Shown here one piece after another: positions 31,701 through 64,000 of a DNA stretch of 64,000 bases. This stretch comes from Schmidtea polychroa. Taxonomy: Eukaryota. The notes below the pieces were generated by a model. That model saw nothing but the letters and a program-made list of their open reading frames with translations, searched no databases and was not told the DNA's origin. The DNA is taken from contig CM097887.1 in assembly GCA_044892525.1 (NCBI GenBank), positions 111,206,397-111,270,396 on the forward strand, written 5' to 3'. Made by a program: the position numbers and the translations under genes. The stretch's first letter is position 1; every line of letters starts with the position of its first letter.

Positions 31701-31762
31701 TTTTAATAATTATTGTTTCCTAATTTGCTTTATAGTTCAAGCCAATCATTTTCAAACTTTGT

Positions 31763-34414: not shown

Positions 34415-34419
34415 AATAT

Positions 34420-35542: not shown

Positions 35543-35626
35543 TATTACAACATGATGTTAATATATTTAAATCTAAATTATGTTTATCCGGTAATGAATT
35601 CTTAGCACCCATTATGATATTATATT

Positions 35627-35959: not shown

Positions 35960-35997
35960 TGATGCATTTTATTAATTAATTTGTTTATAATTTAATC

Positions 35998-36120
35998 CAA
36001 CTCTTCTTTTTCAATGATTTTTTAGTCTTATTTATAGTTTTTTCTTTCCGTTTAGTATTTCTTTTGTTTTCTTTCTGCTTTGTAACTTTTTCACGTTGAA
36101 CTATAACTTTTTTAAATGAC
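35998..36120 (-). CDS. Small Lys-rich basic ORF (possible DNA-condensing core peptide)
   Basis: MSFKKVIVQREKVTKQKENKRNTKRKEKTINKTKKSLKKKSWIKL between the ATPase and the next gene; start position approximate. Confidence 0.35.
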
Positions 36121-36144
36121 ATTTTTAAATAATAATAATCTATT

Positions 36145-36783: not shown

Positions 36784-36857
36784 TTCATTAATATTATTGT
36801 TTATATTTGTTTAAATTTATTATTATAAGTATATAAAAATTATTTAAATTTTATTAC

Positions 36858-37304
36858 ATGACTTCATTATTATTGAGCAACATTAATTATAAAGGTAAGT
36901 GTTTAGTCAAAAACATGAAATTCCCATTAGGTAAACCCCAACAAGTTGTGGATAGAAGTGGGAACTATCCAATTATATTTTACAAGTCGGGTAGATGTCG
37001 GATAATGGCATGCAAGCAACCTCTTAAATTAGTTGATTTGAAATATAAGATACAAGATTTACAAATTCAGTCCATTACAGTAACTGCTGATATCGGTAAA
37101 TTTATAAATTTATACGAATTACAACATAAAGCTAAATGTATGTTTGAACCGGAAATATTTCCGGCCTTACGTCTTCAAAAGTATAATCCAGTTTGTGTTA
37201 ATGTATTTTCAAGCGGGAAGGTTGTATTACTTGGAATAAAAACTCTAGACTATAATCTCTATGTAGAGAACATTATTTCAGAAATTAAAATGTTAATTAA
37301 TTAA
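36858..37304 (+). CDS. TATA-binding-protein-like protein, 148 aa
   Basis: FEPEIFPALRL..PVCVNVFSSGKVVLLGIK matches TBP repeat 2 (YEPELFPGLIY..LIFVSGKVVLTGAK); IIFYKSGRCRIMACK matches repeat 1. Confidence 0.8.
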   Translation: MTSLLLSNINYKGKCLVKNMKFPLGKPQQVVDRSGNYPIIFYKSGRCRIMACKQPLKLVDLKYKIQDLQIQSITVTADIGKFINLYELQHKAKCMFEPEIFPALRLQKYNPVCVNVFSSGKVVLLGIKTLDYNLYVENIISEIKMLIN

Positions 37305-37343
37305 TTTTGTTTGTATTGATTTTGTTTTTAGTAGTTAGAAAAA

Positions 37344-37730
37344 ATGTCAAAAGGTAAAGAATATATTTTTATTTATAATTAATAATCTTTATATCTAGTT
37401 TACTTATTTGAAGTAATTTTAAAGAAGTTTCAAGAATTATACCCAGGAATAAGAAATACCATAGATTATTGTGCACCAGAGTTACTTATAAATAAAATAT
37501 TTCGTTTAACAGGTATTAATATAGAACAACTTTTAGAGTTGCACTACGATATGGTTCTAAGGTTTGACACTAGATGCATTGAAAATTGCATTGTTTGCAA
37601 AGATTCTATGAGATTGTCATGTCCCAATGGGTGTCCATGCTGTCACGACTTTAAAAGGGATCAATCAGTCCATATCTTATTAGCTGAAATGCGTAAAGCA
37701 TACTACACAGATGAATTTAACTTGAAATAA
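37344..37730 (+). CDS. Cys-rich Maverick orphan, 113 aa, one 45-nt intron (37354-37398)
   Basis: MSK|VYLFE... spliced in frame with ORF 37539; C-x3-C-x2-C..C-x3-C-x-CCH cluster. Confidence 0.6.
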
Positions 37731-37790
37731 AATGTTTTATATCATTTGCCTTTTACGTTGTTATTGTGAAATAGTCAAAGTTTTTATTGT

Positions 37791-38019
37791 NNNNNNNNNN
37801 NNNNNNNNNNNNNNNNNNNNNNNNNNNNNNNNNNNNNNNNNNNNNNNNNNNNNNNNNNNNNNNNNNNNNNNNNNNNNNNNNNNNNNNNNNNNNNNNNNNN
37901 NNNNNNNNNNNNNNNNNNNNNNNNNNNNNNNNNNNNNNNNNNNNNNNNNNNNNNNNNNNNNNNNNNNNNNNNNNNNNNNNNNNNNNNNNNNNNNNNNNNN
38001 NNNNNNNNNNNNNNNNNNN
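37791..38019. other. Assembly gap (229 N)
   Basis: Run of N at the inner edge of the right TIR. Confidence 1.
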
Positions 38020-38822
38020 ACCGAGTGTTTATCACATTCATTGTCATCATTATAGTACTCGGGTTCAAAAATGTATGCATGACTTTTTCTTATATATGTT
38101 TATAATTCAATAAATATATATCTATAATAAAATGATACAGAATTATGTAATACCATACCACCCCCCCCCCTTAGGGTACCCATACATATATTACGTAATA
38201 CTGCATATTTGGCTTGGTTTATACTCCTCACTACTCTAATGAAGTATAATTATTATATAAGAGGTCAAAGGTCAATTATTATGTAAGGGGTTAAAGGTTA
38301 ATTATGATAGAATAGGTCAAAGGTCAATTATTACATAAGGGGGTTAATTATGGCGGAAAATCGAGTATTACGTAATCAAAATATAATTACGTCATTTTAT
38401 ATGTGATTGTGTAATTTTACAAAATTACGTAATACCATACCATCAGCCCCTAGGGTACCCATGCATATATTACGTAATACTGTATATTTGACTTGGTTTA
38501 TACTCCTCACTTCTCACTACTCTGTCAAAATGTATTGAATTTTTTCCAGGGATATTTGACTTAGTTTATACTCCTCACTACTCTAATGAAGTATAATTAT
38601 TACATAAGAGGTCAAAGGTCAATTATTACATAAGGGGGGTCAATTGTGACTGAAAATAAAAAAATCGATTATTACGTAATCAAAATATAATTACCTCATT
38701 TTATATGCGATTACGTAATTTTACAAAACTACGTAACACCATCCCACTCCCTATGGTACCCATACATATATTACGTAAAACTGTATATTTGGCTTGGTTT
38801 ATATTCCTCACTTCTCACTACT
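38020..38822 (-). repeat. Right terminal inverted repeat of the Maverick
   Basis: Reverse complement of 20946-21809 with scattered mismatches; ends CTCACTACT. Confidence 0.9.
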
Positions 38823-38968
38823 ATTTCATTTTAAAATTTCAATATGAATTCATACTGGTTAAATGAGAAAGCGAAAAACTGGAAAATATCAATGTTTAAA
38901 CCTAAAAACATTATTTAATGAATATTCGCAATCCACCCAAATGCATATTTAAAGACTTTGAAGATATA

Positions 38969-42473: not shown

Positions 42474-43937
42474 TTTTATTAATATATTTTAGATTGTTTA
42501 GAGTTTAAGTCATATTTATTGATATGTATATTTAAAATTCTCTAACTTCATTGTTTGTTGATTTAAAAGAATATGCATGAATCGTTCTTGTACATGTAGG
42601 TCTCGCTTTCGTTTTGGTTACAATTTTTTCAACTTTTATTTATTTACTGAACTTATTTTTTGTTACCTAAACTAGTTTATTTACATTTTCGTTTTTTTAT
42701 TTTTAGCAAATTTAACAACTATTTAAATTTAAAACTATTAAAAAGCATAAAAACACCTCTTAAGCTGGATATGCTAGAAAGAAGAAAAACCTGTTAAGAT
42801 AGCAAAAGTTCTGGTTTGGTTCAGTTATTAGAGATCAAGATGTTGATAAAATAAGAAAGGCAGGAAAATATGTAAATTTTAAGATTTGAACCAGTAATGC
42901 TTTATCTTCGCTTTCAAATTGGAATGAAACTCAATGTAGAAAACCATCAATCTAACTCAGTTAACAAATTTTTGCATTCAGGCTAAACAATAAAAATGAA
43001 ACATGACTGTATTTTTTTTGTTATTTATTATTTAATTGAATTTTGAGTTCGTCCAATCAAATTCGTTTTAGTCGTATCGGTATATCTCGGATTTTGACGT
43101 ATGTCGTAGTCCTTATTTTTACTTTACAATTCATATAAATTTTACAACTTAAGTCATATTTTATCTTCTTGGCATTGTTACAATGAACAATCGAATTACA
43201 AGATGGATATAAAAGCCACAGGCAAATAAACAGAATTGCCAATGGGTTGAAAAACGTAAAAGAATAATGTAGCGAGAGTAAAAAAAGGAAAATTGAACTT
43301 AGTGATAACTGAATATATTCGAATCGAGCGTACCAGAAAGGAACATCTCCGTTGAAAGAATAATCCCTTCGCAAGGTTATATTGATATTGAAAGGTGTAG
43401 AGCAAAAGAGTTGTTTAAAGTTGTGGTTGTTTCATTAAATAGTGTTGGGCCAAGCTCCGAAGGTGTTGGAAAAACGAACCTAGGAAGGGATAGAGTAAAA
43501 TAAAATAAAAACATATAAAAATACGAGAAACATAGGAGGAAACAAATTAAATATCCAGAAAGAAATTAGAATAAAATTAGAATAACTAAATAAAATAACA
43601 AAACCCCTAAAGGAAAAATAAGACAAGAGGGAAGGCACCTAATAAACGACAGTAAAAGAAAAAAAAATAAAATAGCAGAAAATTTAAGAAAAATGAACAA
43701 AAGTAAAAGAAGAAAAACAAAATAAAAATAAAAAAATCATCCATAAGGCTAATTAAAACAAAAAAGGAAGTTACAATAAAATAGCAACAAAACCACAAGA
43801 AAAACAGATAAAATAATAAAAAATAGGAAAATAAATAAAATAATAATAAAAATAGGAAAAAGTCATTAAAATATACCTGATTACATTAAAAAACATAAAA
43901 ATCATAATAAACAATAATATTACATGCAAGTCGCGTC

Positions 43938-44058
43938 CTGATTGGACGAAAAGTAATATATAAAGAGCGACAAAAATCTGTAGAGTATCATTCTAACCCG
44001 AAACTCTACAGGTAAAATTTTATCCTTTATAATATCATTCTAACCCGAAACTCTACAG
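43938..44058 (+). promoter_or_regulatory. Putative LTR promoter: inverted CCAAT, TATA, Inr-like TCATT, duplicated leader and mini-intron
   Basis: CTGATTGG 43938-43945, TATATAAA 43957-43964, 26-nt direct repeat 43986-44011/44033-44058, GT at 44012. Confidence 0.55.
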
Positions 44059-46283
44059 AAAAGCTAGGAACCACTCACAAGCACAGATTATTGAACCATA
44101 TTCATTTATCGGATAACATATACATTGAACGGAGATCGAATTCAGCTCAGTCGAACGAGTCTATCTAAAGAAAACTTATATTACTTTGATCTAACACCTT
44201 CGGAGATTTTTGGTAAATTATGTTTTAGATTTTAGTATGATGATCTAAATATTTATTATGAATTTAACAAGTCGTTTATAATCCAATAAATTTCATATTT
44301 TAAACGAAGGTGTTGCTTTCTCTCTATGAGGCTGGCGACGGCGTCCTCTGGAATCCGGGTATGATGCAGTTGGGTTTTTCGAACGTCCTACGGAGAGGAA
44401 ATTTACGAATATGAACTCGGGAAATTGAAGTGATAGAACTAGCCCAGGATCCATATGAATTTAGAAACTAAAGTGATTACTTAATGAATACGAGATTTAT
44501 GCTAACCAGAGTCATCATGCCCGGATTTCAAATGTCGTGGTCGCCAGGTGAACATTTATTTAATTGATTTTCTCATAATTCCATTATTTCTATATTGATT
44601 CACTGAATAATTAAATTGTATTGTTGCACATTTATTGAGAATGGAGTTGCGATGAGACGGGTCGAGTCGTCCTTCACACCGGTCCAAGAGCAGTGGGCAG
44701 AGATGCGTACTGCCTTGGGTGGGTTGTGAGGAGCGAGGAAACCATGTGAGATTTAACAAATCAAGTAAATGATTCTTTCATCGAGTGTAATCCACCCATC
44801 TTAGTCGTCGAAAACCATCCAATGCAGAAACTTCTGAGTGACATAGTTTGAGTCAACGATACCTTGGGAACTCCCGGAGGCATACCATTAGAACTATCAT
44901 CAGCCTTGTATCCAATCACGTCATTAATAATCTTTGATTTGGAGCCTTATTCGTCTTGCATTGAGAGAAGCGACTGCTAGAACGTCTGCCGGAAGGAGTT
45001 ATTAATTTCGAGTTTTTACGAGAGATTCTCTGTACTAAGCCCATTTCGTATCTTACAATCTGAAGGTGCTTTGGAAGCTACACCGCCGGGAGGTTAGCGA
45101 ATAGATCCATCGTCTTGCTTATCGTCGACTCCGGGGGGACTTAATCATCAACCGACATCTAGCCGCTGTCATCGATAATAGCCGTTTTAGAGATGAATGT
45201 AAACATCTCTAGATAGTAGATTTAAACACTGGCTATGAGTCCGAAGGAAACGGTCGCCAGCGACATCGGGTGGGCGTAGTAGACTGCCGGGAAATCGGTT
45301 GATAAGATATCTGAAGCCTCAGTCACGAGCGAACGAGTTGACAGTTTTTATCTCAAAACCAATTAGTGGAGCAAAATCTAAATATGGAATCGATCTTATC
45401 TAGTAGATTCGCAATTTAGCCCACACAATTAGATTCACGAGTTTTCTATGACACCCTCTTAGATTTCCACCTATCTAGAAAGTCAGCCAGCGATGTCATG
45501 TCTAGTGTGCAGATAGTGGATAAATTTATCTCACGATTGTGTAACGGTAGACCAGGAGATGGTAGACTACATGTCCAATCCGACAGTGAGATTACGTCAT
45601 ACTGAATAGTAGAATGTTCTACCTAGTCCACGACCACAGGCTGAAGATAAATCATACAATGCATGCATACGAACAGACCTGACAACATCTGCTAGCCTAC
45701 CTCCAGGGTAAAACTAATACACCACTACTCACAAACAAGCGTCGTTATGACGACATTTATGGCGCAAGATTTAAGATGATCAAATAGCAAATTATGATAA
45801 GACTTAAATTGAATTTTGCGGTTCTTTTATGAAGCCGATCACGGCGGTTTAAAACCCCAATAGTCACCCGTCATACCGAACTATGTTTTTGTGACTTCAC
45901 GAGTGCGAAATTTTACGAGTATAGTAGGACGGGGAGTGGGAATGCTATTACTAGGGAAGGATAATTATAACAAACTCGACTGTGGTAAATTAATAAAAGC
46001 ACATTAAATAAAAATGGCCAATTTCGGACAACAAACATAAATTCAAAGTTAGGATAAATGTATTATTTTGAGGAAGCCCGTTTTCTTTTTTTTTTTTTTT
46101 TCTCTATCAGTGTGGATGCTTGCAGACAAATGAGTGTAAATGTTGACCAGTGATATGGGTAAGTGGGTCATTGTCGAGTAGGATGATTGGAAATAGGGTA
46201 AAAATTGTAGTCAAAATTTGGAAACGACACTCCAACGATTTTTTTTTTAAACTCTACAATTAACAAAACGTCTTGATCTTTAG

Positions 46284-47045
46284 ATGCCTGCTTCAACCGC
46301 TACGAACAAGGATCTCCGTCCCTGCTTCTCCTGCGCAGATAAAAACGCAGACATAGCACAACTCCACTCATACATTGGGGCACTGAAAAAGAGAATTGAT
46401 CTCTATGAAGGCACGTGGTTCTCCCCGCCACAGATGAAGGAGGAGCGCAGTAAAATTCTTCGGTTGGAACATTGCCGGGACAGCCTCCTAGAGGAGAGTC
46501 GCTGTCAAAGACTGACGATCAAGGCGCAATCGGAAGCCCTCCACAAGGTCTACACGGAGGCAGAATTGGCCAAACGGGTACGAGAATTTCCCGTCTTGGA
46601 GGCCAGCAATGTTTTTCCCACTCACCACCAAAGTACTTCCACCGCTACAACCAGTTGTCTGGGGCACGGCTCCTATCTGCCGCCTGTTCCAGCACCGGCC
46701 TTATATAGTTGTCAGCCGCCGGTAGGTGGTCCATCCGACCCTATCTTGGCTCCAGTTTTAGTGACATCAGTTACAGCACCCGATGCGGACAACCATCAAC
46801 CACAGCGTAAAAGAAAACGGCCGACCCGAGCCGCCAAAAATCAAAGACGTCGAGATGCAATCGCGGCTCTCGAGGCGTCGTTATCTGTGGCCAAGTCTTC
46901 TCTGGAGAAGTTATCGTCAATACCCTCTACCCCCACAAAGGAGATATTCCGGGTGATCTCGCCCGAAGGGGTCCAGCTCGTGCGAGACCGTCGGTTACCG
47001 GTCGACATCGACGAGATGATCGCCGAAGGGGAAGTTTTCCCATAA
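46284..47045 (+). CDS. LTR-encoded protein of unknown function, 253 aa (CxxC, coiled coil, basic NLS-like patch, acidic C-terminus)
   Basis: Intact ORF directly after a ctttag acceptor; homologous to 25825-26567. Confidence 0.75.
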   Translation: MPASTATNKDLRPCFSCADKNADIAQLHSYIGALKKRIDLYEGTWFSPPQMKEERSKILRLEHCRDSLLEESRCQRLTIKAQSEALHKVYTEAELAKRVREFPVLEASNVFPTHHQSTSTATTSCLGHGSYLPPVPAPALYSCQPPVGGPSDPILAPVLVTSVTAPDADNHQPQRKRKRPTRAAKNQRRRDAIAALEASLSVAKSSLEKLSSIPSTPTKEIFRVISPEGVQLVRDRRLPVDIDEMIAEGEVFP

Positions 47046-47586
47046 TTGGACGTGTCGTTGACCCATCTCTCATTCCACGCGATCAAGCTCAACAATCTTT
47101 ATAAACGACTTAGATGATGCGTGTTGTGTACTCTCCTACGTGTTGTGATCGGAAATTTGTGTTCATATGTATCCTCAATTTCATTAATATAATCATAGTA
47201 TTCGTTGTGTTGTCCCGTAAAAGTTATAGAGTGATGAGTTATGACTGGACGAATGGATTGGAATGATCATTGGAGAATGTGGGTCGTCCCCTTGGACCAG
47301 GGTCGTACCGAGAATACATGACGAGTAGGGGTAAGACCTTCTTAGGCACCGAGGAACCTGAACTGAGAGGGGGTCCGTAGTAGTCCTAAGGCAGGGGCTC
47401 ACCTGCGGACCAACTCCGACCCGTGTGAGCAGTACCAACGTGGGTAGATCATCACGGGCTCACATGAGGGAATATTTGTAAATCATGCGGGTTATGTGGG
47501 GGAAGGGCCCCGAGCTAAAGGAACATGATGCCAGCTGCACTACGAATGTCCGTTTGACTCCTCCCATATACGCCCAACATGATTTT

Positions 47587-47604
47587 TGGGGGCTCAGCCG
47601 GGAT
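47587..47604 (+). promoter_or_regulatory. Primer-binding site complementary to tRNA-Pro
   Basis: TGGGGGCTCAGCCGGGAT, 7 nt after the LTR end; compare the MLV tRNA-Pro PBS TGGGGGCTCGTCCGGGAT. Confidence 0.85.
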
Positions 47605-48088
47605 TCTACACTATCAATGCGATTTGTCGATCACCCATTATTGTGTTATGATGTGTTAGATTTAACAATTTAATTAAGGATGATTAAAAACGGAATCGGG
47701 ACTGAAACAAATCGATATTATAGTATAATAGAATGATGATACGAACTGTTTGTGTTTGAAGAGAGCATGTATGAATAAAAACGAACCTAAATGAGTTTGA
47801 ATGAAAATAAGGTTGAATGAATGTGAAAGAGTGCGGTGAGAAAAGAAAACGGGAATCACTTATTTTGTTTAGTTTAATTTATTAAATTAAAAAGAGGGAT
47901 GAAAGGAAGTAATGATAATAAAAGTAAATGATTAAAGTGGAAAATATGACGAGGGAATTCCAAGGATGGAATAAAATACAAAAGTTAGAAACATTAACAA
48001 TAAAAGTCAAACGAAAATTAAATACCAACCTGATAATATCATTAATAATACCCGCAAAACAAATAATAACAACACATTTTTTTTAGAT

Positions 48089-48568
48089 ATGTCGGAAGCT
48101 AGAAAACATCTACAACAGCTAAGCAGATTCATCGACATAGAAAACGATTCTCTAAAGACGTTAAGAGAAAAACTGCAACAAATAGAGACCCTAGAACAAC
48201 AACGCCACGATGCACCTCTGATATCAAAACAAAATTATTTAACCAATAAACTGGGAGCAACAAACACCGATACCGACTTGTCTACCCATTACCAATGGAT
48301 GCAGCAACGACTCGACGACCCCGCTCTGAACATCGAATATGTGAGAATACGCGAACAAGTAAAAACTCTGTCTCAGAGAATACGAACATCGATAGTAGAG
48401 AAAGCAGCGGTCTTAAGAACTTGTAACATTTGTAAGACGCGACCTGCCAAAATTCTAATTCTACCGTGTGGACACCTTAGCCATTGTGACGAATGCGCCG
48501 TCAGTTTAACGCATTGTTCTTTATGTGTATGTGTGATAAAGGAGAAGCACACGATTTACTTCAGTTAG
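48089..48568 (+). CDS. Coiled-coil plus C-terminal C3HC4 RING protein (IAP/MDM2-type RING, no BIR), 159 aa
   Basis: CNICKTRPAKILILPCGHLSHCDECAVSLTHCSLCVCVIKEKHTIYFS*; polypyrimidine-AG acceptor just before the ATG. Confidence 0.85.
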   Translation: MSEARKHLQQLSRFIDIENDSLKTLREKLQQIETLEQQRHDAPLISKQNYLTNKLGATNTDTDLSTHYQWMQQRLDDPALNIEYVRIREQVKTLSQRIRTSIVEKAAVLRTCNICKTRPAKILILPCGHLSHCDECAVSLTHCSLCVCVIKEKHTIYFS

Positions 48569-49157
48569 CACGCGATCAGCACTCGGTGAAAGAATTGATC
48601 TGATTGACGATTTGACTAAATCCTTTATGTTTAATTGATGGGTCAATAATTTTTTAGTAAATGTGTATATTGCATGTGGCTTAAGCCAAATAATGAATAG
48701 AATGTTTTGTGTGTTCATTTTATTGTGAATTCAGTAACTTTATGATAATTTTCACCATAGAGAGAGAGCATCAATAAACTTAATTTAAACAAATAATATA
48801 AAGTGGAACTAGTCCCAACATAGGGTTAAAGGGGGAATAAACCGAGCCACCTTCGGGAGGTACGTTATACAAATGCCGTTTGGGAAGGGACAACCGATCA
48901 CCCCGAGTAAGAGATGTAAGGCGAGGTACCATCGCGAATATTGAAAAGTTTCTGCGGTATGGCTGATCACCATACCAATGTAGAAATGGATCAATGCGAT
49001 CGTTTTGCGTTTTGAGCAAGGGGGGAAAGGGGAAACCTTCCAAAGCGGTACAGATTAAGTCGACAAATAAAAGTAAAAATAGGAAGATGACAGTATAGAA
49101 TAAAGACAGAAAAGGAACGGAAGCATGCAGAGTTTAGAGACATTAAGGCCGAGCTGT

Positions 49158-49475
49158 TGAAAAGTCCAGCCAGTAGGGGATAATAAGATCGAGTTGTTGA
49201 ATAGTCCAACCGGTCAGAAGAAGAAGATTGAGCTGTTGAATAGTGCCAGCCAGTCGTAAGATCGAGTTGTTGAATAGTCCAACCGGTCAGAAGAAGAAGA
49301 TTGAGCTGTGAATAGTGCCAGCCAGTCGTAAGATCGAGTTGTTGAATAGTCCAACCGGTCAGAAGAAGAAGATTGAGCTGTGAATAGTGCCAGCCAGTCG
49401 TAAGATCGAGTTGTTGAATAGTCCAACCGGTCAGGAGAAGAAGATTGAGCTGTTGAAAAGTGCCAGCCAGTCGTA
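49158..49475. repeat. Tandem repeat, ~4 copies of a 72-73-bp unit made of two related halves
   Basis: aagatcgagttgttgaatagtccaaccggtcagaagaagaagattgagctg(t)tgaatagtgccagccagtcgt starting at 49185, 49258, 49330 and 49402. Confidence 0.9.
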
Positions 49476-50857
49476 AAGGCCTAAAGTAATAGTGAGATAG
49501 CATTTAAGCTACAAGTTGATAACATTTAAATTACTAGTGAGATAGAATATTAAAGATAGCTAGAAGCAAATTGAGTTTGAAATATGGAATTTGAATTTAG
49601 AAAGGATCAAACGAGCTCGTAAAAGATGATAGTAAAATTCTTTTAGTAAAGAAGGAGAAACGGAAAAGGAAAATGAATTAGGAATAATAGAAACAAAGAA
49701 TAAGTATGAATAGATGATGAATCAAAGAGGAAATAATTAATTAATTAAAGGGGATCCCAGGTAAGTAGACAAAAGTTCTACAGAATTTTTTTGGTTTAAA
49801 CCGGTTAAACGAATTTTGTTTTGGTTCCAGAGCAGAACCGAGTAAAAGGAAATAGAGATGAAAGATTAAATGAATAAGCGGAACCGCGTAAAAGGATTAA
49901 GGAAAATATGGGGGGTAATAAGCAGTAACTGACAACGACCTATCGATATTATAAATGCTAACTATAGATAATTTATACGACTATATAGATAATTGTTACT
50001 ACCCCCAAATAGATAATTAAAAATCGACGAAAACTATGGGTTGATGGGTAATTATATTCCGCGGAGAAGTGTATGAGGGGAAATGAAGAGAAGCATAACA
50101 GAGGCCCAAAAATGGTGTCTGTGCTTGAATGTGGTAAAAAGGAATGATTGATTCGTGTAAGCAAATGCAACACGATATCATTTTTTCATTGTAGATACCC
50201 ATCCAACCAAGTCAATTCAGAACCAGCTCAAAAGGAAGCCAGAGAATATACAAACAACCCAGGAAAAGCAATTCAGAACCCGCATAAAGAAAAACAAGCC
50301 AATCTGAACACGGAGGACGACAACGACATCTTTACCTACGACGGAATTATCGAAATACCTAGCATCGACGTAATAGCAGCAGTCAATCAAGGACTCAGAT
50401 ATCTCCTCCGGAAATCAGCCGAGAAATTACGCGGAATATTCCTCGAAGGAAACACTATCAGAACCAAACTTGACCAATTCAGCAGCCGCTAACCGTAGAA
50501 AAATCCACGTGAAAAGACAGAAAAGAGTAAGAAAGAATCACGGATAAACCCAACCTTAGATCTTCAAGTAAGCCAGGAGACGTATTATTTTCAGGAGACG
50601 AATTAGATCAACTCAAAAGAGGACGATCATTTAGGCAGCAGAGAGGAATATCACAAGGAGCAAAAAGACCCCACAAAACACCGATATACGATCAAGAAAA
50701 CCCCACAGCCGGACATACGCCCAGTCGATCTAGAAGTAGAGAAAGCCTATCCGATATAACAAACAACCTAACCGGGTCAACAGAAGAATTATCCGTCCAT
50801 AGTTTAGCTACATCGCTGGAAAATTTAAAAGGAATAATAGAGTTTCAAGAACCAATC

Positions 50858-53800
50858 ATGACGAATGTGGTAAAAACCGACGAATATAAAGAAAAATTTA
50901 GAGGCGAACCATTCAACGGGAATGCGAACAAGTTGGCAACGTTCATAACAAATTTTGAAGTCTATATCGATGTGTGTGGATGGACATCAGAAGCAATTAG
51001 CAAACGGATGCCGTTGTTTTTATGTGATAGCGCATTAGAAGTGTATCTAGAAGCAAAAGAAAGAAATACGAAGTTAGACAATTGGGAAAGCATCAAAACA
51101 TTTTTGAGAAAAACATTCGGAGCCAGCAAACCAATAAATCAAGCCCTAGGAGAATTAGCAAGTAGAAAATAAAGAGCAAATGAATCCATAACGTTGTATG
51201 CGAGTGAATTGCGAAGATTGGCAAAGAAGGCCATGAACGGAAACTTGCCGGAGGAAAATTTAATTGGCTATTTCATAGAAGGACTGCACCGAGAAGAGGT
51301 AAGGGCCTCGGTGGGATGTCAAATGTGTAAAACACTAGAGGAAGCCATAGATTGGGCCACGAGATGCGAACTCCACCTCCCGGCACAAATGAATGTCATG
51401 CAAGAGGAAGGAAGAATCGCAACAGCAACGGTAAAAACTGAAAATGGAGAGAACAGCAATCATGAACCAAAAATGAATCAGTTTATACCCGGTGCGCATC
51501 AAATTTTCAAACCACCGCAAGGACGATCAAATGGGAATAACAGTGAACGCAACAACCCGAATAATGGGAATAATTTTAATAATCGACGAAACACGAACGA
51601 TAACAAACAATGCCGAACATGCGGTAAACCAGGACATTGGGATAGAGATTGTTACCGAAACGCAAATTGCAATAGGTGTGGACGACGGGGACACACGGAA
51701 AATATATGCCAATTGAGAGGATGTTTTAATTGCGGTCAACCAGGTCATATCTCAAGAGACTGTCGAGAAAGGAGCCAACAACAACGACCACCCCAGCGAA
51801 ATAATAACTATGCACCAAATCCGCAACGAAAAAGTAATCCTAGTGAGGGAAAGCAAATGAATGTGATGCAAGAAATTTCACAAATGAAGCAGATGATGCA
51901 ACAAATGATGAGACCGAGACAAGAGCAAGTACCACAACAAACCCAGAATATACGCATGATGAGGAGCACCGAGAATCTTAACAATTATGAAGTGCAACAA
52001 CATGCACAAGAATGGCAAAGACTACAAGCTGAAGAAGAGAGGATAAAAAGAGAGCGAATTCAGCAGCGACAAGAACAACCATTACGAATAAATATGATGA
52101 GAATGGTAAGGGAGATAAAAGAGCAATATTGTTACAATTACGGTAAAAATCCAAGAGTTGTACCTATGAGCGAACCAGAGAAACCGAAAGAAACAATTCC
52201 AGCAGCAAAAAAGGAAAATTCAACAACATCGCTAAAAGGAAATCAGAGAATTCAGAAAATATTTTGGAAAAAGATAAAAGATAAAATCGAAAGAGAAAAT
52301 GAGAAAACAAAAACAGAAGCAGAAGCGGAAAATAACGAAAATGAAAAACAGATTAATCATCTAAATCATGATATGATACGAGGATTAGACTCAGAGGAGC
52401 TAACGATACTCGAGAACAAAAAATTAAAGAAAGTACCAAGAATGAGAAATTTACGAATTAATATGATGAGGACAACAAAGAAGGTGTTGTCAACAGATGA
52501 CGATGAGGATTATGTGAGTAGCCTTGGTGGAGAAATGTTACAGTTAAATGAAAATATCGACCAACTAAGAGAAAAGATCGGAGCAGATGAGGATGAAAGT
52601 GAAAGCGACGTGACAAGCGAAAGCGAAGACGAGAATATCGAAATGAAATTGAGAAAAGAAAGAGAAGAAGCGATAAAACAAGTAAAGGAAATACTTCCAG
52701 TGGTGGTAAGAAACCAGGAATTCATTGACATCATACCATACAGACGCTTCACACAAAGGATAATGAAACTAGAAAGAAACGAAAAAGATCTAATACCAAA
52801 CGAGGAGAAAGCGATAATAAAGAAGTATATGGAAAAAATGAAACAAGCGGAGACAACACGCTATGTAATAAAAATCGGAACGAGCAAAGGACTCGAGAGA
52901 ATATGGATAAAAAGTGCAGTTACAGACGATCTCTTCGATTGGATAAGAGAACATTTGGGCAGCTCGAGAAAGAAAGAATACCTGTATCAATATCAAGGAG
53001 AACAAATCAAACCAGACATGCACCTAATAGATGCATTGATCTGGCCAGGAGAAACTCAAATATTGAAACTGCATAAAGAGAAGCAACCAGCAAATATTCA
53101 CGAATGGGCTAAAGACGCCAAGGCCGAGTATGACTTTAACATCAAGCTGAAGCTGGAACAAATAAAACAATGCACCTTGCGACGAAATCTAGATAAATTA
53201 ATCAAACAAATCCAAGAACAAGTTGAAGATAACTGGGATTTGCTCATAACAAGACGAACTGCAGACATGCATGAACTAATGGGCCGACTGCGAGATACAG
53301 AACTGCTCCGAATGAGTGATTGGAGAACCATAAATTTGATCCACAAATATGGAAGGTTGAAAGAAACGCAACCGCAGAAATTGGAAATAACCATATGGTT
53401 ACCAAACGAGGAGAAACGACGAATAAAGATGAGTAATCAGAGTACGGTGGATGACTTAGTAACCAAGATAAACCAAGAGATAACGGAAAAAGTACGAAGC
53501 GAGAGCAGCGATGGTATGATAGATGACGTAGTCATGATGTACGATAAAATAATACTACGGGCTGAAGACGATACCTCGTTAAGTGAAATGGGAATGTGGG
53601 ATAATCATCAAATCATCAGAATATTGCCCATGGACGAATTCCGAACAAGAGATGTAACATACCAGAAAGAAATACGAGACAGGATGAAAACGCTATATCA
53701 AAAATCAGTAGAGATAATTGAAATTCATCAACAGTGGCTAAAAGAAAAAGAGCTTCAAGGAAAAATAAAGAAACTAAGTGTTAGATCCTGCAGACGAACC

Positions 53801-55615
53801 CCATGGGAAAGGATTTGGAATGCGGAAAACAAAGAATGGGAAATCAGGAAAGGGATTTTCGTGGAAACAGACATTGGTGAGATAGAAAGCGAATCAGAAG
53901 AAGAGGAAGATGAACCTCCAAAATACGAAGAGGACGAAATAAAATCGACATCGGACGACGAAAGCGAAACGGATGTTACATCAGAAAGTGAAACGGAAAC
54001 CAGATATATTCATGCGATGAGAAAGAAAGAACGCGAATATGCCGATATGGACAGCGAAGAAGCGATGGAAGCTCGAGAACGAGAAGAGAAGGAAAGATAT
54101 AAACAATTAGGTGATATCTTAGCAACGGGAGCAAAAAATCAAAAACGTCAAGTAATAGCATTGGCTAACATCATCCTAAAGACATCAGAGAATATCCACA
54201 ATCTAAGAGAAATGGCGAAAGCGATTGAGGAATACCGACAATATAACGAATGGTACCCAGAACAGCTAGAACAAATTATTAGGAAATGGAGAAACCAAGA
54301 ATGGGCACAAGATACCCAGGAAAGGTATCGTATCCGAGTCAAGTATCCCGACAAAAGCATTGAGGATACAGAAGTACATCCAACAACAAAGATCAGAGAG
54401 TTAAAAAAGAAATTAGCATACGAAACTCCATTTCACCTACAACTATTCGGAAAATCGTTGGATGATAATGCAGATGTCGGAATAACACCCATGAGATTGG
54501 GGGAGATCAATGTATTGACAATGGCAGAAACATTGGGAAAACCGATTAAAAGGAAGAGCAAATCCAGTAAACCTACGAAAGGTAGCTTGAGTACACCAAG
54601 CCCTAACAAAGTGGCGAGTAAATCGAATGAAACCGAGGAAATCGAGGAAATTATATTGGAAGACAGCGATGAAGGAGCTGGAGAAAGATCACCAATTCTG
54701 GTAAGATGGCCGACAGGAGCCGAAATATGGACAACAAGCCAACCATCAACTAGCTATCAGCAGCCAAATAAGCTAAGTATCGAGGAGATTATCGATAATA
54801 CAACAGAAACCGAAACCGACGAACAATTCCAACGACAGAAAGGACCAACGAAAGCAACACCAGAAGGTCAAACGGACAAAATAATAGACGAATGGAACGA
54901 ATGGCTGAGAAACAACGATAGCTCATTGCCAAGAACGGATAACGAGAGAAACCCGAATTATGAAAATACAAGGGAAGCCGGAACAATGATGGAGAAACGG
55001 GCAAAAGGGAGACCCAAGAAGCAAGGAGAAAAACCGGAATTTAAAACCAGAGAACAGTTGAAACAAGAACAAGGACAAGTCAGACTAGAAAAACTGGATA
55101 AAATAGTGTGGGACTTAAAAGAAGCTCAACCAACAATCGAAAGAGGCGAAAAATGGATACGGGAGCTAGTAAAAGATATGCTAATAATAACGAACCCACA
55201 ATTGAGACGGTTATGGCAACGAAAAGTAGCAAGCGTAGATGCCAGGCAGCTATGGAATACAATATCCGGAATAATTCCGAAATTAATCAAAGAGAAGACA
55301 AAAACCACTAAAACCGATTGGGAAGAGACAAGAAGAGTAATTGAACAATTAACTTTAAACGCAAACGACGACGAACATTATTTAGTAGTATTAACGTATC
55401 TAATGTACAATTTGATGGGATTAGCAGCAAGGAAAATACCTAACAAACAATTCGCAAATCATGTAGAAATGACCGTTACAATCATTGAAAATACAATCGA
55501 ACCACATATTATCCGCGCCGGTGGGTGGAAAAGACTCATACAAGCGCCACGAAAAAACGAGCAAGAGAGATCAATGCAAATTCGGTTGAAGAAATTGCTA
55601 AACGAGCTGGAATGA
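50858..55615 (+). CDS. gag: Extended Gag: capsid, 3 CCHC knuckles, 3 ubiquitin-like domains, C-terminal Bcl-2-like domain; one internal TAA (51170-51172)
   Basis: EPFNG..F..NFE..W, RK*RANESITLYASELRRLA (typical RKQ..ES motif), CRTCGKPGHWDRDC, CNRCGRRGHTENIC, CFNCGQPGHISRDC; ORFs 50858 and 51194 share one frame. Confidence 0.88.
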
Positions 55616-55666
55616 GAATTGCCATTGAAAGACCCAGCCAGCAGAAAAGCGTCGATTAATTCACTA

Positions 55667-57560
55667 ATGATGACCATGATGATATGGATGCTCTGCACCA
55701 GTGGAGCCGCGGGATTTACCATTTACGACTGTGACAATTCGATAATAGGAGAAAGATACTCCCTGAGAGATATAGAGGAATGTAGACAGGCATCTCCGAA
55801 TAAATTAGATATAGTAAAAAAGAAAGTCTCCTATCACGTATACCAAGAATCAGATTTCATTAGAACGCAAGCTAGAGAATGCGTAGTATCGAAGAAAGTG
55901 TTGGCATACTACTGTGGACAATACTCATATTCAACCCTTATATTACCGGGATTAGATAAAGAAATAGTACCTATACAACGGGAAGACTGTAAAGAACTTT
56001 TTAGAACCGGAGCGATGAGAATCAGGGATGGAGTAACCATACACGGACAAAGCGGAATGATCAAGACGGAAAGTATCTATGTAGCCGGACGAGTAAAATC
56101 AACTGATGGATCATGTAACGGAGGCACATATACGATCAGAGGAGAAGTGATCTCGGGAGTAGTAGTAATTGAGTCCTACACAGTGGAGTTGAAGGAATAC
56201 GAAGCACAATTCGACGCAAACAACTATCAAATGAAAACCAACCCAGCATGCAGAGCTACGGAAAACGTGTGTAGAACGGGAATTTCGACTATAATATATG
56301 AAGCTAACACCCAAAAATGCCGACTCCAATTGTTAAAAAGTGCTCTATTCAATGAAGTAAAAGGAGAAATTTACGAAAACGAGGATGACGATGAAGAGAA
56401 TGGAAACGTAAGGATGCGAAATGGGAAACCAGTCCCGCCATCCCCCAAAGAAAAGAGACTCACAACCCAAAAAACACCAACGGCATTAATTACAGATGAT
56501 CCGGACATCGGCATGAGATTCATTAGAGAAAAAGAGACCACCAAATGTGACAGCATAGTATATCGGACGAACTACGCAGGTATCTACATGTCAAGGCAAG
56601 TAATAGACCGAGCAGTGGGAAAGGTAGCAACAGAGGACGTAAAATTGTACCTGTACGCTAATAACAAAATGGACTTTTTATTTCATCGAGGACAAACGAC
56701 AATGCAAAAAGTGTATTACGATCTTATACAAAATGACTGTTCATTGAATAAAGAGATACTAAAAACAAAATTAGCTATCGCAATAACACACCCAGATAAC
56801 ACAATGCCATCACTCCCGTTACCGGATGGACATTTTGGTAGAATGGTGGGAGAGGTAATGTATACATATGCATGTACCAAGACATTTGCGCGACTGCCAA
56901 GAAAGCCCACAATTCCACCAGGGAAATGTGCAAACGAATTAGAAATTAGCTACAAAGGGCGGAACAGATTCGTTCAACCAGTCACTCGAATTATGAACCC
57001 AATTGGATTTTATCCGAACACCTTTAACTGTTCAAATGCATACGGACCGTTATATGAAAAACCCGATGGGAAATGGATAATGTTACCGGTAAAAACCGAA
57101 GTACAAGAACCTAAAAAGTTTGGATTAATAGAACTCGCAACAGAGCAAGACTTCAAACCAATTGATGTGTCAAAAGCGGGTATGTACTCACCAGAGGATT
57201 TAGAAACAGCACGACTAAACGTACTATTCCCAGCAAGGCGAGAATCCATTCTATCGAATATGGTTACCATAACTGGGGGAACGAATTTCCAGTCAGGCCC
57301 CAATTACGAACTATTATTGTCACCCGATCATTTTCAACAAGCCACGTCAAACATGATGAAAGCAATGTGGGGAAGATTTCTAGTGTTCGGTCAAATGATG
57401 GCAGGAATATTGGGAATCATCTTAATTATTCAGATTGTCAGGGTGATATTGACTCAAATGTTAGCGTGTTTTGATATCTATAAGAGAGAAAAGAAAGTAA
57501 ATTGGAAGTTGATAGTAGGTTTTCTACCATTTTTGGCAAAAACAATGGTGTTACACGGTC
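55667..57560 (+). CDS. env: Envelope-like class III fusion glycoprotein (chuvirus G / herpes gB-like), N-terminal part of ORF 55619-60301
   Basis: Signal-like MMTMMIWMLCTSGAAG, then IYDC..YSLRDIEEC..Q..C.V..YCG.YS..C..AGR..GSCNGG..VVV Cys pattern; TM FLVFGQMMAGILGIILIIQIVRVIL. Confidence 0.75.
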
Positions 57561-58009
57561 ATTCTAAAGATATACACAGAATAAAACGATTAATCAAAAT
57601 ACTGACAAAAATAAAAGGGACCGACGAAGAAGTTGGCAGACGATTTCGGAAAACAATGTATGATGAGGCAACGAGAGCGCAACTAAAAAGGAACAAACCA
57701 AAATTCCTGGACAGATTTAGAAATCGGTCAAACAGCAGCGATAGCGATGATGGCGACAACGGGAATGACAAATACCCATATCCAAGTAGAAACCCGAATG
57801 AAAAGCCAATAGAAACAGCGCCATATTGGGAGAAAGAAAAAACAAATACCTGGATAGCCAACGGAAGTTATATACCACCAGATATCGTTGGACAACAAAC
57901 AGCTTTGACCATGACACAAAATATGTATCCACAGTTACCAAGTCAACCAGGGATGAACTATATGCCAACCCGAAGAACGAAAAGCGTAGACCAAGCGGAT
58001 GACGTAAGA

Positions 58010-61000
58010 ACGATAGCAGTGATGAGTTCACCAGGAGGCGCGGCAGTAACAGTCATGATCCAAATCAACGGGAAAGAGACAAGCGCAATGATAGATACCG
58101 GAGCAAATGTATCAGCAATAGCAATCAACCAAATACCCAGTAAATGTTGGAAAGACATCGAACAAACAACTATCCATATCATCGCATGCAGTAAAGAAAC
58201 CGTAGACGTAGTAGGAAGATGGTGGACTACGTTAAGATATCAAGATAACGAAATTGAAACGTATCTAGCGGTGATACCCAAACTGAGTGAACCATGTATA
58301 ATCGGAACGGATTTAATGCCAGAATTGTTCAAGGAAGTAGTAATCGATTTAACAACAATGTGTCTAAAGGACAAAACGGGTAGAATATGCAAGATGAACG
58401 CAATAATTAGATGTCCGGAGAAAATAATTGTACCAGCAAAATCACAGATGATATGTCAAATAAAAGTGGATGCAGGAATGGAAGGAGAAGTCATTTTTGA
58501 GCCAAGCAGATCATTCGAAAAACGACGAGAATTACCATTAGCAAGAGAAATAATAACAATAAATGAAGACGGGGAAATACCAATCAACATCACAAATTTC
58601 GAGGAAGAAGATAAAATCATATATGAAAATGAAAGATTGGGTAGATTGACACCCATGATAGACATCGAATTACCAAAAATCACCAACGAAACAACGAAAG
58701 TCGGCGAATTATGGATAATTGACAGCACCTTGCTAACGGAAAAAGAAAAGGAAAGACTTCAACAATTATTGATAGAATATAAAGATATATTCGCAATTTC
58801 GGATTTAGATTTGGGAGCATGCGATGTTACATTACACGCAATACCATTAATAGACGAAACTCCAATCGCACTACGTCCATACAAACTAGCAGAGAAGCAA
58901 AAAGAGATAGCCGAAGCAGAAGTACAAAAAATGCTAGATGCACAAGTGATCGAACCAAGTTGTTCGCCATGGCAATTTCCAGTAGTCATGGTGAAGAAAA
59001 AAGATGGTACTCAGAGATTCTGTATCGATTATCGGAAATTAAATGCAGTAACAAAAAGAGACACATACCCGTTACCAGACATCAATGAGATGTTACTTAT
59101 GTTACAGGGGGCCGCATATTTTACATCTTTGGATCTGAAAAGCGGATATTGGCAGATCAAAGTCAAGGAGGAAGACAAAGAGAAAACAGCATTCACATTG
59201 GGCCGAGATCTATACCAATTCAGGAAAATGCCATTCGGACTGACCAATGCCCCAGCATCATTCCAGAGATGTATGAATTTTGTCACACATGGGATCAAGC
59301 AGTGTATGGTATATATTGATGATTTATTAATATATTCAGCAACGTTCGAACAACATTTGGAAGACATTAGAAACGTGTTCATCCGATTACGACAATGGAA
59401 ATTGAAACTCAAACCATCCAAATGTGATTGGGCAAAAGAAAAAGTTACGTTCTTAGGACACATAGTGTCAGCAAAAGGCAAAGAACCAGATCCAAGAAAC
59501 ATAGAAAAAATAAAAACATGTCCAGCACCAAAAACTGTCACCCAAGTTCAAGAATTTCTCGGATTATGCGGATATTATCGAAAATTCATCAAAAACTATG
59601 CAGGTATTGCGAAACCAATACAGGAATTAGTGAGAAAGGATATTTCATTTATTTGGGGTGCAGAACAACAAAAAGCGTTTGAGACATTGCGAGATAAATT
59701 GATTGAAGCCCCAATACTGGTACATCCTGATTTCAAGAAACCGTTCTTATTAGCAACAGATGCAAGTGGATATGCAGCCGGAGCAATATTAGGACAACTA
59801 GATGAAGAAGGAAAAGAAAGAGTGATTGGATACTACAGCAGAACGTTTAAAAAGCATGAGAAAAACTATTCCGTAACCGAGAGAGAAGCGTTAGCAATTA
59901 TACAAGCGATTAAACATTTTCGATATTTGTTGTGGGGACACGAAATATGTATCACAACAGATCATCAACCACTAGTATGGCTTGGCCAACACAAAGAAGC
60001 TTCAAGTAGATTGATGCGATGGGCAATGCAGTTACAAGAATATTCACCGTTCATAAAATTCAAAGCGGGAAGAGCGAATGCCAATGCGGATTGTATGTCC
60101 AGATTTATCTTTCCAGATTTAGTAGATCACGAAATGCAACGAATATGTCTGATGGTGGCAGAGGATTTGGATTTTTGCCAATTACGGAAAGACCAACAAG
60201 AGGATACAGAGTTGAAGCAAATCATTGAATATGTGAAAACAGGGAAAGCAGAGGTATATGAGAAAGATCAAAAATTGAAGGAGCATATGGATAAACATTG
60301 ACATCGATATATTATCGAGAAAGACTGGTTGTTGATAATGGATGGAGAAAAAAGACTGATGTGCATCCCCGAGAATAGACGTAAAGAGCTGCTAACACAA
60401 TACCATGACGGAAGACTCGGAGGACATATGTCATCTAAAAAGACGTTGGCACGAATGAAACAAAAGTATTTTTGGCCTACATTGACCGAGGATGTAACGG
60501 AATGGGTGAAAAATTGCATAACTTGCGCAACCAGAAAAAACACGGGAACCAAATGGAAGGCACCATTAAAGCCAATGCCAGTACCAGCAGAACCAATGAC
60601 CATGATATCAATGGACGTGGTCGGTCCACTACCAGAATCAGATAGAGGAAATATATATATATTGGTAATCACAGATTATTTGACAAAATTCCCCGAAGCA
60701 TTCGCAATGGCAGATCAGAAAGCAAGAACAATCGCGAAAATACTAGTAGAGGAGATATGCTGTCGATATGGAACACCAAAACAGATATTAACTGACCAAG
60801 GAACAAATTTCATGAGCGAAATAATGAGCGAAGTCACTAACTACTTCAAGATCGCAAAATTAAGAACATCACCGTACCATCCACAAACTAATGGTATGAC
60901 AGAAAGATTCAATGGAACACTGATTCAAATGTTATCAAATTATGTCGATCGTCATCAACGCGACTGGGACGAGTATATAAAATTATGTTTAATGGCTTAC

Positions 61001-62482
61001 AGAATGTCGATTCACGCGTCCACAAAGATGAGTCCGTTCAAGTTGATGTACGGCAGAGAATGCAATATGCCAATGGATTTGGAGTATCAGCCACCAATAT
61101 CACAGTATATGGAAATAGACGATTATGTAACCAAGTTCAAGGAAAGAATGCAGGAAATCTGGGAAACTGCAGGATTGAATATAAAATTTTATCAAGAAAG
61201 TTACAAAGATCTACATGATAGAAAGAAAAACGTCAAACAGCATACGTTTCAAACAGGCGATTGGGTGATGATCGAAACACCAGAATTAGTTCCAGGAACC
61301 ACCAAAAAATTACAACGAAACGGTAAAGGTCCGTATGAGATCCTATTCATCGGAGAAACCAATGTAAGAGTACGATTGGTAAACAACCCCTTCACGAGGC
61401 CAATATATGTAAATGTGGCACGATGTAAGCCAATACCGAAAACAGCCACCAGCCAGCCGGAAGGGCGAACATTAACAACAAGATCACAAACATATAGAAT
61501 AAATATGTTACAGCAGATAAACGAACCAACAGGTAACCGATTGGGGTTACAACCATCAGAAGCCGAGAAAATCATAAAGGAAGTGAAAGCTAAAATGCCC
61601 GGATGGGCAGAAGACAGATTAGATTTTGAGATATTGGGAGGTCTGCTAACAATGATCGAAAATTATGCAAACCGAGAAAGGACACACCCATTACTCAGGG
61701 TAGTAAAAAGTCAATGGCCTATATTATTTACGATCACAGACCATTATGGAGATACACCGCTGCACAAACTTTTAAAGGTCGGGAATAATGAACAAATACT
61801 GGAAACGATCGAAGCATTTCGCGATTGTAACGTTTCAACAGATCAAGAAAATAACCAAGGTTACACTCCACTAATGATAGCAGCCAATCGGGATAAAGCT
61901 AAAGATATTATCATCGCATTACTTGAAACTGGGTCAAAGATAACCACACAAGACCACAACCAGAAAAATGCACTACATCATGCAATCGAAGGGAAAAGTA
62001 CGGAAGCCTTCATAATCTTAATAGATCTATTATCATATGAGGATAATAGGGAGATAGGAAACATGTATGACGGGTTATTAACTGGAATCAAAGAGAAATT
62101 AATAACAATTACTGGAATACTAATTGCATGGAGGAACCCGATCAAAAACGATTATATGGTAGATATAAACGAAACATTTACCAAAGGAGAAAATACCTTG
62201 ATGAGGGAAGCGATGAGAGGACATCACCTATTCGAAATTCCAAATCAACTACTACAACGTGGCATAAAATTTTCAAATCACAAAGACGAACAACTAATCA
62301 GAAAACGAATTACCAACTTCGAAAAAGCTATATCTCAATTTACCGATAAAGTACAAGTAAAATTTTGGGAAACCGTGAGTGTATTATATATGATGGAGAA
62401 TATGAACAACATTCGAGAAAACTACCTAAGTATTATTCAAGTGCTTACGGCGGAAGAACGCATTAACAGTTCAAACAAGTAA
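58010..62482 (+). CDS. pol: Pol: aspartic protease, RT, RNase H, integrase, then ankyrin repeats; one internal TGA (60299-60301)
   Basis: IDTGA (58094), YIDD (59312), TDAS/EREALA/TDHQPL, H..H..CxxC, MDVVG/TDQG/TERFN (DDE), GPY (61328), GDTPLH/GYTPLM/KNALHHA; ORFs 55619 and 60329 share one frame. Confidence 0.93.
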
Positions 62483-64000
62483 AAGATAAAAATAAAGAAA
62501 GTAAAAACAAGAGAGTCTGAGGAACAAGTCGATCAAATAATAACCGATATAGCAACAACAAGTAAACCAAAGATAATAAACTCAGACCAGGAGATAATAA
62601 TACGCAAAGCCAAAGAGGTGTTCTTTGAAGAAATGCAAGATCTATCCGATGAAGCGATACTAGCAAAAATAACAAAAACAGTACACACCTACGCAAGAGA
62701 CCAGACCACAAATCTAGACATAGAAAAAATAAAAACATTTATACCACTAGCATTCACCTTACCAACAAAAGACTCAAGAACACCATTACAACAAGCCATT
62801 TTAGCAGCAAATGAAAACAGAGCAATAACCATCATAAGAATCCTTGGAGACTTCGGAGAAGAATCTAATGCAAAAAATGAACAAGGAGAAACAGCAATAA
62901 TGTATGCAGCCATAACAAATATACACCCGAAAACATTACATATACTACATCGATCGGGATCAAGACTGGACGAAATATCAAACGAAGGAAATTCTACCAT
63001 GGATTGGGCAACCATACAACCAAACTTGGAAATGATTAGATTCATTTGTAAAAATGCTACAAGAACTGAGGTAGAAAATATCTGTAAAAACACGTCACAG
63101 TTCCAATGGAACACGATACGGATGAACTTAGAAGCCATGAAGTTATTGCTAACATGGAAAATACCGCAAAGCAATAAATATGCAATAAATATAAATGAGT
63201 TCTACGAAAACGGAGAAAATGCTATGGTTAAAAATACACTAACAAAAGGAGGAACTCCGAAAATCATAATGATCGTATTGAACAGAGAAGACCTCAAATT
63301 CACGCAAAATCTAAACGAACAAAAGCGGATTGGAAAACATCGCCGTATACAATTGAGAGAACTGGTAAAAGAATGGAATAGAAAGAGACATGTAGCAACA
63401 GGCAGAAAAGAGTTTGAATTCGAGGCAAAATTAGCAAGGAATAGAGTGTTAACGGCATATCGCAGATTATTGAACGACATAAATGTCGAGGACGACATTT
63501 CAAACGATAGCGGGGGAGATAAAGACGATAAAGACGACGATGATAATGAACAAGGTCGAAACGGGAATGGAGAGAAAGAGAAATCAGAGGAAAATAATCA
63601 AGGGAATAACGACTCAGGTATAAAAAAGGAGGAAAATAAACCGGGAAGCCGAACAAAGGAAGAGGAAAAGACGAATAATGGGAAACAGAGGGTATGCCCA
63701 CTTTTTACCAACAAGGAAATGGAAACAAATATGATGGTAATGATACTCATACTAACAATGATAGAAATGATAACAGCCCACGGTGGAATGAGAACGATAA
63801 AAGAAGCCAAGGAAACGGAAAACAAAGACAACAAGGAGAAGGAACTAAAGCAAGAAAAGAAGAAGCAAGTACGAGAGCAACAATGGGATTTAAAAGAAGA
63901 ATGGGATCTAAAAGAAAGATGCATACTAGGAAGATGTATGTCGAGAGCATATCGGAGACTAGTATTAATAAATGAAGATACAGAACCAATAACGGAAGTA
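62483..64000 (+). CDS. Continuation of the same frame: further ankyrin repeats, acidic/low-complexity region and a hydrophobic segment; open to the window end
   Basis: 506 stop-free codons after TAA 62480-62482: SRTPLQQAI, NEQGETAIMYAA, NEGNSTMDWA, MMVMILILTMIEMI. Absent from the ORF track because it has no stop in the window. Confidence 0.8.

Follow-up and report, generated by a model that had tools for sequence, protein, structure and literature searches.

A Bcl-2-like domain between Gag and Env in the polyprotein of a Burro-type retrotransposon of Schmidtea polychroa

Can a retrotransposon carry a regulator of cell death of the Bcl-2 family inside its own polyprotein, and how would such a domain come to sit on a membrane? 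The question is raised by a locus in a stretch of 64,000 nucleotides of Schmidtea polychroa (GenBank assembly GCA_044892525.1, contig CM097887.1, positions 111,206,397 to 111,270,396 of the forward strand), hereafter the window, where the original prediction had placed a Bcl-2-like apoptosis modulator at the end of Gag, directly before an internal signal peptide proposed as its membrane anchor. The protein strings quoted in that prediction are present where it had put them, in the + frame of ORF 51173-55615, and the surrounding features are collected in Table 1.

The element and the state of its copy

From gag to the ankyrin repeats, one frame runs over 50858-64000 (+), that is more than 4,380 codons, and is still open at the end of the window. 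Gag, env and pol share this frame, three knuckles follow gag, ubiquitin/SUMO-like (Ubl) domains precede the BCL2-like motif, env stands between this motif and the protease (PR), the order of pol is PR-RT-RH-IN, and ankyrin repeats are present. Matched to published descriptions, the element is a Burro-type giant Ty3/Gypsy retrotransposon of the order gag-Ubl-BCL2-env-PR-RT-RH-IN plus ankyrin. In its treatment of Burro elements, PMC6431247 describes one polyprotein some 5,000 residues long, with three knuckles in S. mediterranea (section 7), a Ubi2/SUMO-like domain preceding the BCL2-like motif that Grohme et al. (2018) had noted in Burro-2, -3 and -4, an in-frame env that separates BCL2 from the protease, a dUTPase-like domain detected by HHpred and a variable MATH domain; Burro-1/GYPSM1, Burro-2, -3 and -4 are reported there from Schmidtea mediterranea and a Burro-like element from Dugesia tigrina (citing Jurka, 2007; Grohme et al., 2018). 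Besides these modules, the window element shares with Burro elements an upstream accessory ORF and an AT-rich host, whereas it differs from them by its four in-frame stops and by having no detected MATH, BIR or dUTPase-like domain. MATH was detected neither upstream of gag nor by Pfam in the window, and a dUTPase-like domain neither by Pfam nor by PDB search, the 3' part of the element lying beyond the window; a six-frame scan of 43000-50860 gave no BIR in any frame, the RING being the sole match there. Within the 64-kb window, neither an LTR pair, a second copy of the element nor any tRNA gene was found.

The RING ORF (48089-48568) probably belongs to the element, and its RING is presumably IAP-like in look. 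Seen by itself, this ORF looks like the RING-bearing half of B-IAP as published. Between the RING ORF and gag, a repeat of 72-73 nt occurs in four tandem copies (49184-49476); tandem repeats are also marked on the Burro maps of PMC6431247.

A domain-plus-env search returned four full-length polyproteins of 3,761-4,057 residues (P0003 to P0006) among 4,000 candidates, and a second search, with 8,000 scored, one fragment from a sister family (P0007), which ends inside the central helix. Over RT-RNase H, the window is 56-61% identical to the four full-length relatives, and its capsid shares 56% identity with that of P0007, where the region is Pfam-positive. P0006 has a gag-Ubl-X-env layout and reads gag-Bcl2-env-pol without a stop; its ubiquitin-fold matches are clear (ubiquitin E 4.4e-5, PF11976 E 0.0015) where those of the window are weak (E 0.0024-0.07), and its ankyrin repeats lie between env and the main protease, not 3' of the integrase. 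P0003-P0005 are organized as gag-env-pol with neither a Bcl-2-like domain nor ankyrin repeats, and exhibit extra aspartyl-protease matches after the integrase. Taken together, the layouts of P0003-P0006 reveal domain shuffling within this element group.

As for the copy itself, the capsid stop falls at codon 105, upstream of the Bcl-2-like domain, which is itself unbroken (55136-55543). Of the stop positions, 51170 and 55613 were compared with the relatives, whose frames are open at both. Since the stop at 55613 is one of four in the frame and relatives read through, the window copy is probably a dead, decayed insertion, and production of the polyprotein or of an anchored domain from it is very unlikely; by computation, about 0.5% random substitution is enough for four stops, which fits neutral decay. 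The alternative of programmed read-through at 55613 seems unlikely, because three other stops occur elsewhere, relatives are open at both tested positions and this same level of substitution explains all four stops. The location of the domain at the end of Gag is thus literally right for ORF 51173-55615 but misleading, the TGA at 55613 being one of the four stops and P0006 reading through, and is most likely an artefact of decay.

Elsewhere in the window, a Polinton/Maverick-like element (20840-38928) has terminal inverted repeats at 20840-21808 and 38021-38928, 84% identical, with genes for a type B polymerase (26930-28579, -), a double-jelly-roll capsid (31763-33058, -), a chromodomain (34420-35070, -), an integrase (35081-35557, -) and an A32 ATPase (36145-36810, -). 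Inside it, on the strand opposite to these core genes, lies a TATA-binding-protein-like ORF (36837-37304, +; PF00352 E 9e-13), an unusual cargo. A GC-rich ORF of 253 codons without Pfam match (46284-47045, +) may be a nested element or a further accessory ORF. Also seen were a hAT transposase dimerisation fragment (13648-14070, +; E 8.6e-9) and, at 5483-7039 (+), an ORF of 518 codons that weakly matches a kinase (E 0.005).

Table 1. Positions in the window of the element, of its Bcl-2-like domain and of neighbouring features
Feature	Position	Strand	Basis and remarks
Upstream accessory ORF, coiled-coil-like, C3HC4 RING at its end	48089-48568	+	zf-C3HC4_3 E 3.1e-8
ORFs of the element	50531-51172, 51173-55615, 55616-60301, 60302-62482, 62483-64000	+	one reading frame, four stops, zero frameshifts
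Gag capsid region and three CCHC zinc knuckles	50858-51763	+	Retrotrans_gag weak, E 0.024; zf-CCHC E 4.8e-12 (Pfam)
Three CCHC knuckles	51611-51763	+	capsid part upstream interrupted by TAA at 51170
Candidate third ubiquitin/SUMO-like domain	near 52850-53107	+	by eye only
Ubiquitin/SUMO-like domains, at least two	about 53360-53500 and 54332-54436 (span 53360-54436)	+	PI3K_rbd E 0.0024, ubiquitin E 0.072, UBX E 0.042
Additional helix ahead of the domain	55064-55123	+	predicted
Bcl-2-like helical domain, predicted helices a1 to a8 equivalents	55136-55543	+	PF00452 best match, E 0.031-0.07; helix limits from low-confidence AlphaFold model; Foldseek
Extra helix PQLRRLWQR	55196-55222 (QLRRLWQR 55199-55222)	+	three-sequence alignment, model
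BH1-equivalent segment	55340-55399	+	profile alignment to Bcl-xL 118-189
Hydrophobic central helix	within 55370-55429	+	sequence
BH2-like segment IIENTIEPHIIRAGGWKRLI with P-x5-GGW	55481-55540	+	GGW at 55520-55528; same motif in P0006, residue 1167
In-frame stops	TAA 51170; TGA 55613-55615; 60299; 62480	+	in capsid; between Bcl-2-like domain and signal peptide; at integrase boundary; between ankyrin blocks
Internal signal-peptide-like hydrophobic segment of env	55655-55714	+	hydropathy; 13 codons past TGA 55613; putative cleavage after 55714
Env, mononegavirus-type (Monjiviricetes) fusion glycoprotein	55715-57484	+	PF24664 E 2.6e-72; in frame, gag before, pol after
Pol, Ty3/Gypsy order	58052-60883	+	protease 58052-58327, RT 58991-59467, RNase H 59729-60043, integrase 60365-60883 (Pfam)
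Two ankyrin-repeat blocks 3' of integrase	61802-63061	+	Ank_2 E 7.7e-14 and 3.3e-7

Evidence bearing on Bcl-2 ancestry

The domain resembles Bcl-xL, Mcl-1, BAK and BAX in being all-helical over about 135 residues, in its hydrophobic central helix, its BH1-BH2 spacing, its P-x5-GGW motif and the hydrophobic segment downstream. Unlike cellular Bcl-2 proteins, it has DDEH for NWGR, no G-D BH3 core, an extra conserved helix and a position embedded in a polyprotein, while the downstream hydrophobic segment is an env signal peptide common to elements without the domain. In the polyprotein of the window, chance alone would give one GGW 0.14 times and P-x5-GGW 0.006 times, and the motifs taken alone exceed chance only marginally; the sole GGW of P0006 sits at the position equivalent to that of the window. 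That NWGR is absent was correctly seen, DDEH (55367-55378) standing at the equivalent positions in the Bcl-xL alignment with both Gly and Arg replaced; these positions read TRGK in P0006 and are similarly acidic in P0007. The reading of QLRRLWQR as BH3-like did not survive, for it has no G-D pair and belongs to an extra helix, the one preceding the helix at the BH3 position. Compared by eye with the BH3 segment of Bcl-xL, no G-D pair occurs in 55136-55300, and counting back from BH1 the BH3 position more likely falls in the next helix (55235-55300), itself without G-D. Because its L, W and R are invariant in the three aligned elements, the PQLRRLWQR helix appears to be a family feature of some non-BH3 kind.

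No single test of Bcl-2 ancestry is significant. PF00452 is the best Pfam match of the window domain (E 0.031-0.07), at 14.1-15.3 bits, or about half of the gathering cut-off of 31.4 bits; among 13 partly overlapping control segments of the same polyprotein, an unrelated-looking Pfam match at E<=0.07 arose in four and Bcl-2 in none. For the equivalent segment of P0006, Bcl-2 is the sole Pfam match (E 0.008; 17.1 bits, again below the cut-off), and the Bcl-2 case rests on this relative giving the same family at the same position in a comparison with 24,736 families. P0006 had been retrieved with a query consisting largely of env, but its segment was cut after GGW had been seen, so that the test is not fully blind. 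The P0006 segment aligns to BH1-BH2 of Bcl-xL, 53 of the 54 PDB sequences being Bcl-xL variants and thus effectively one protein (best E 0.15); a three-sequence profile run against PDB sequences gave Bcl-xL in 54 of 58 cases (best E 0.19), with BH1 then BH2 in the profile alignment at a spacing near-identical to that of Bcl-xL. The window domain and the P0006 segment are 21% identical in alignment, and pairwise local scores of the former against upstream segments of P0003-P0006 were no better than shuffles (198 of 500 reaching the P0006 score). By phmmer against the PDB, the window domain retrieved malate dehydrogenase only (E 1.5), and homologues of the domain alone were found neither among 475 candidates nor among 1.84 billion representatives. 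NCBIfam gave no match to a Bcl-2 model but one to the bacterial SCO2524 family on residues 39-102 (E 6.7e-5), which scores better than the Pfam Bcl-2 match; this identity was rejected at 21.5 bits versus a cut-off of 300 and with only one of the three members concerned.

As regards the fold, AlphaFold run on the single sequence gave a model of pLDDT 50 that resembled designed repeats and generic bundles. The rows listed for it included no Bcl-2 fold, row 50 being a chain of 114 residues from a Bak-inhibitor complex. Nothing usable came from ESM Atlas, whose leads were all below 0.8 and none of them Bcl-2. The AlphaFold and Foldseek check suggested with the original prediction gave a mixed outcome when run on a model built from three sequences: 39 of the 42 PDB rows listed were BAK, BAX, Mcl-1 or Bcl-xL, but none was significant (all E-values above 0.08, TM 0.24-0.44 for the Bcl-2 rows) and the model is of low confidence (pLDDT 54, pTM 0.47). 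Against BFVD, ranks 1-3 were viral Bcl-2 proteins, and nine of the 50 rows listed were named Bcl-2-like or E1B small T, the latter being a Bcl-2 homologue. The top row, A0A5H3CWZ2, is the Bcl2 of a lancelet adintovirus, a mobile-element-borne Bcl-2 (weak, E 0.29). Because Foldseek scores amino acids too, its signal is not independent of the sequence signal. With VIA-align, Bcl-2 chains reached Z 5.0-5.5 (rmsd 3.7-5.0, 79-135 aligned) and were tied with or below plain helical bundles; the wide VIA search with the three-sequence model had three Bcl-2-family chains among the 50 rows listed (Z 5.0), and VIA re-alignment of the Foldseek matches 20 among the 50 listed. On such models, the Bcl-2 fold of the domain is unproven.

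An unrelated helical domain in which a GGW tripeptide makes for a chance likeness would agree with every score lying under threshold, with the noise matches of control segments at similar E, with the absence of a Bcl-2 lead from the single-sequence model and ESM Atlas, and with the lack of homologues for the domain alone. Such a coincidence is nonetheless most improbable, given that the window domain and the P0006 segment, equally placed and no more than 21% identical, each pick Bcl-2 among all the families compared, that BH1 and BH2 keep their order and nearly their spacing, and that earlier authors annotated other copies likewise. The weak tests combined with the earlier annotation of Burro copies give high confidence that the domain derives from Bcl-2. 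The relationship as originally claimed is supported for helices a4-a8 (BH1 to BH2 region).

Conservation, tethering and possible roles

P0003-P0005 have no GGW and exhibit an acidic linker at the domain position; because three of the four full-length relatives are without it, the domain appears dispensable for the wider element group, and among these relatives P0006 alone conserves GGW. Compared with P0007, the N-terminal half of the domain is identical at 55 of 85 positions (65%) and is the best-conserved part of the N-terminal region, the knuckles reaching 34/56 (61%), the capsid 110/198 (56%), Ubl 48% and the flanks 32-39%. Because this conservation exceeds the capsid level, it argues for selection on the domain and makes it worth a bench test.

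The domain does stand directly ahead of the internal signal peptide, as had been noticed, with a stop intervening in the window copy. Within ORF 51173-55615 there is no membrane anchor, the env signal segment lying 42 codons past GGW on the other side of this stop. A signal-like segment precedes env in all four full-length relatives; because the three without the Bcl-2-like domain have it too, its primary job would be env translocation, and anchoring a by-product. Its use as a membrane anchor is plausible, and would site the domain at the ER, not at mitochondria. Grohme 2018 and Lee 2026 aside, neither the anchor idea nor a functional test of the domain was found in the literature searched.

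The reading preferred here is that of a captured, strongly diverged Bcl-2-fold module within one long gag-Ubl-BCL2-env-pol-ankyrin polyprotein. In intact copies, the hydrophobic segment some 42 codons past GGW would direct env into the ER lumen, and a signal peptidase cut would leave the Gag-Ubl-BCL2 part, or a protease-released piece of it, tethered on the cytosolic face of the ER in the orientation of a tail-anchored Bcl-2 protein. Polyprotein topology and signal-peptidase rules are the general knowledge behind this ER-tether model. So tethered, the domain would most likely be a host-modulating, pro-survival binding module, with a groove that may be non-canonical since the window subfamily has lost both the Gly and the Arg of BH1. 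The mechanism as a whole, i.e. a Burro BCL2 module, an ER tether and a non-canonical pro-survival role, stands at about an even chance. A bolder version, in which the cleaved env signal peptide acts as tail anchor and the groove is rewired (acidic BH1, extra helix) for a new host target, making a Bcl-2 mimic and a second survival arm beside B-IAP, must be deemed unlikely.

Two other roles compete with this non-canonical, host-modulating one. A canonical viral-type Bcl-2, whose a2-a5 groove would bind the BH3 of host Bak, Bax or BH3-only proteins and block mitochondrial apoptosis, could draw on the BH1-like TRGK that P0006 keeps at the NWGR positions, on poxviral proteins that bind BH3 with a divergent BH1 (SPGR, NDNR) or another Arg, as discussed in PMC8310162, and on the Bcl-2/Bak-based cytochrome c release that planarians use according to PMC8998228; yet the DDEH of the window and the similarly acidic P0007 have neither Gly nor Arg, and the same two sources hold respectively that the BH1 Arg contact is the hallmark, even if poxviral proteins can substitute other residues, and that losing the BH1 Gly makes a functional BH3 groove unlikely. 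With an env signal peptide that would moreover imply the ER rather than mitochondria, this canonical role is doubtful. Ranking behind it, and improbable as well, is a Bcl-2 fold serving the element's own cycle as a membrane-binding or matrix-like spacer that joins Gag to the ER membrane bearing env and takes no part in host cell death. Its constant place after Gag/Ubl and before the env signal peptide, shared by the window, P0006 and the published elements, and the strong conservation alongside lost BH1/BH3 signature residues, would suit such a role, but three of the four full-length relatives build the same gag-env-pol polyprotein without the domain, and other modules of the element class (IAP, RING, Ubl, ankyrin) are of kinds typically used to manipulate a host. 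On balance, the non-canonical host-modulating role is favoured over the canonical one, then the structural one and lastly chance likeness.

Known systems and significance

As captured divergent modules in mobile elements, the viral Bcl-2 mimics (herpesvirus vBcl-2/BALF1, adenovirus E1B small T, poxvirus F1L/ORFV125, adintovirus Bcl2) are a close parallel, but they are stand-alone genes of DNA viruses, whereas the window offers a domain of a retroelement polyprotein. Within the same element class, the B-IAP of Burro1 is likewise a captured cell-death regulator, reported to protect planarian stem cells from apoptosis (Lee et al., 2026, as cited in PMC13465017), and the window has its own RING ORF upstream; B-IAP is however a separate module of the IAP family (BIR+RING, anti-caspase), and no BIR was found in the window. 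The Bcl-2-like domain cannot be claimed as new, the BCL2-like motif of Burro being already in print in PMC6431247, and since the window architecture matches the Burro description given there, its finding in the window is a rediscovery. It is unusual for a retrotransposon to carry a Bcl-2 domain, yet for the Burro class this has been on record since 2018-2019; what is added here is the conservation of the domain's N-terminal half above the capsid, together with the three of four relatives that are without the domain yet have the signal peptide. If the domain works, one element would have captured two death regulators, the IAP and the Bcl-2 module, the latter possibly with a new mode of anchoring.
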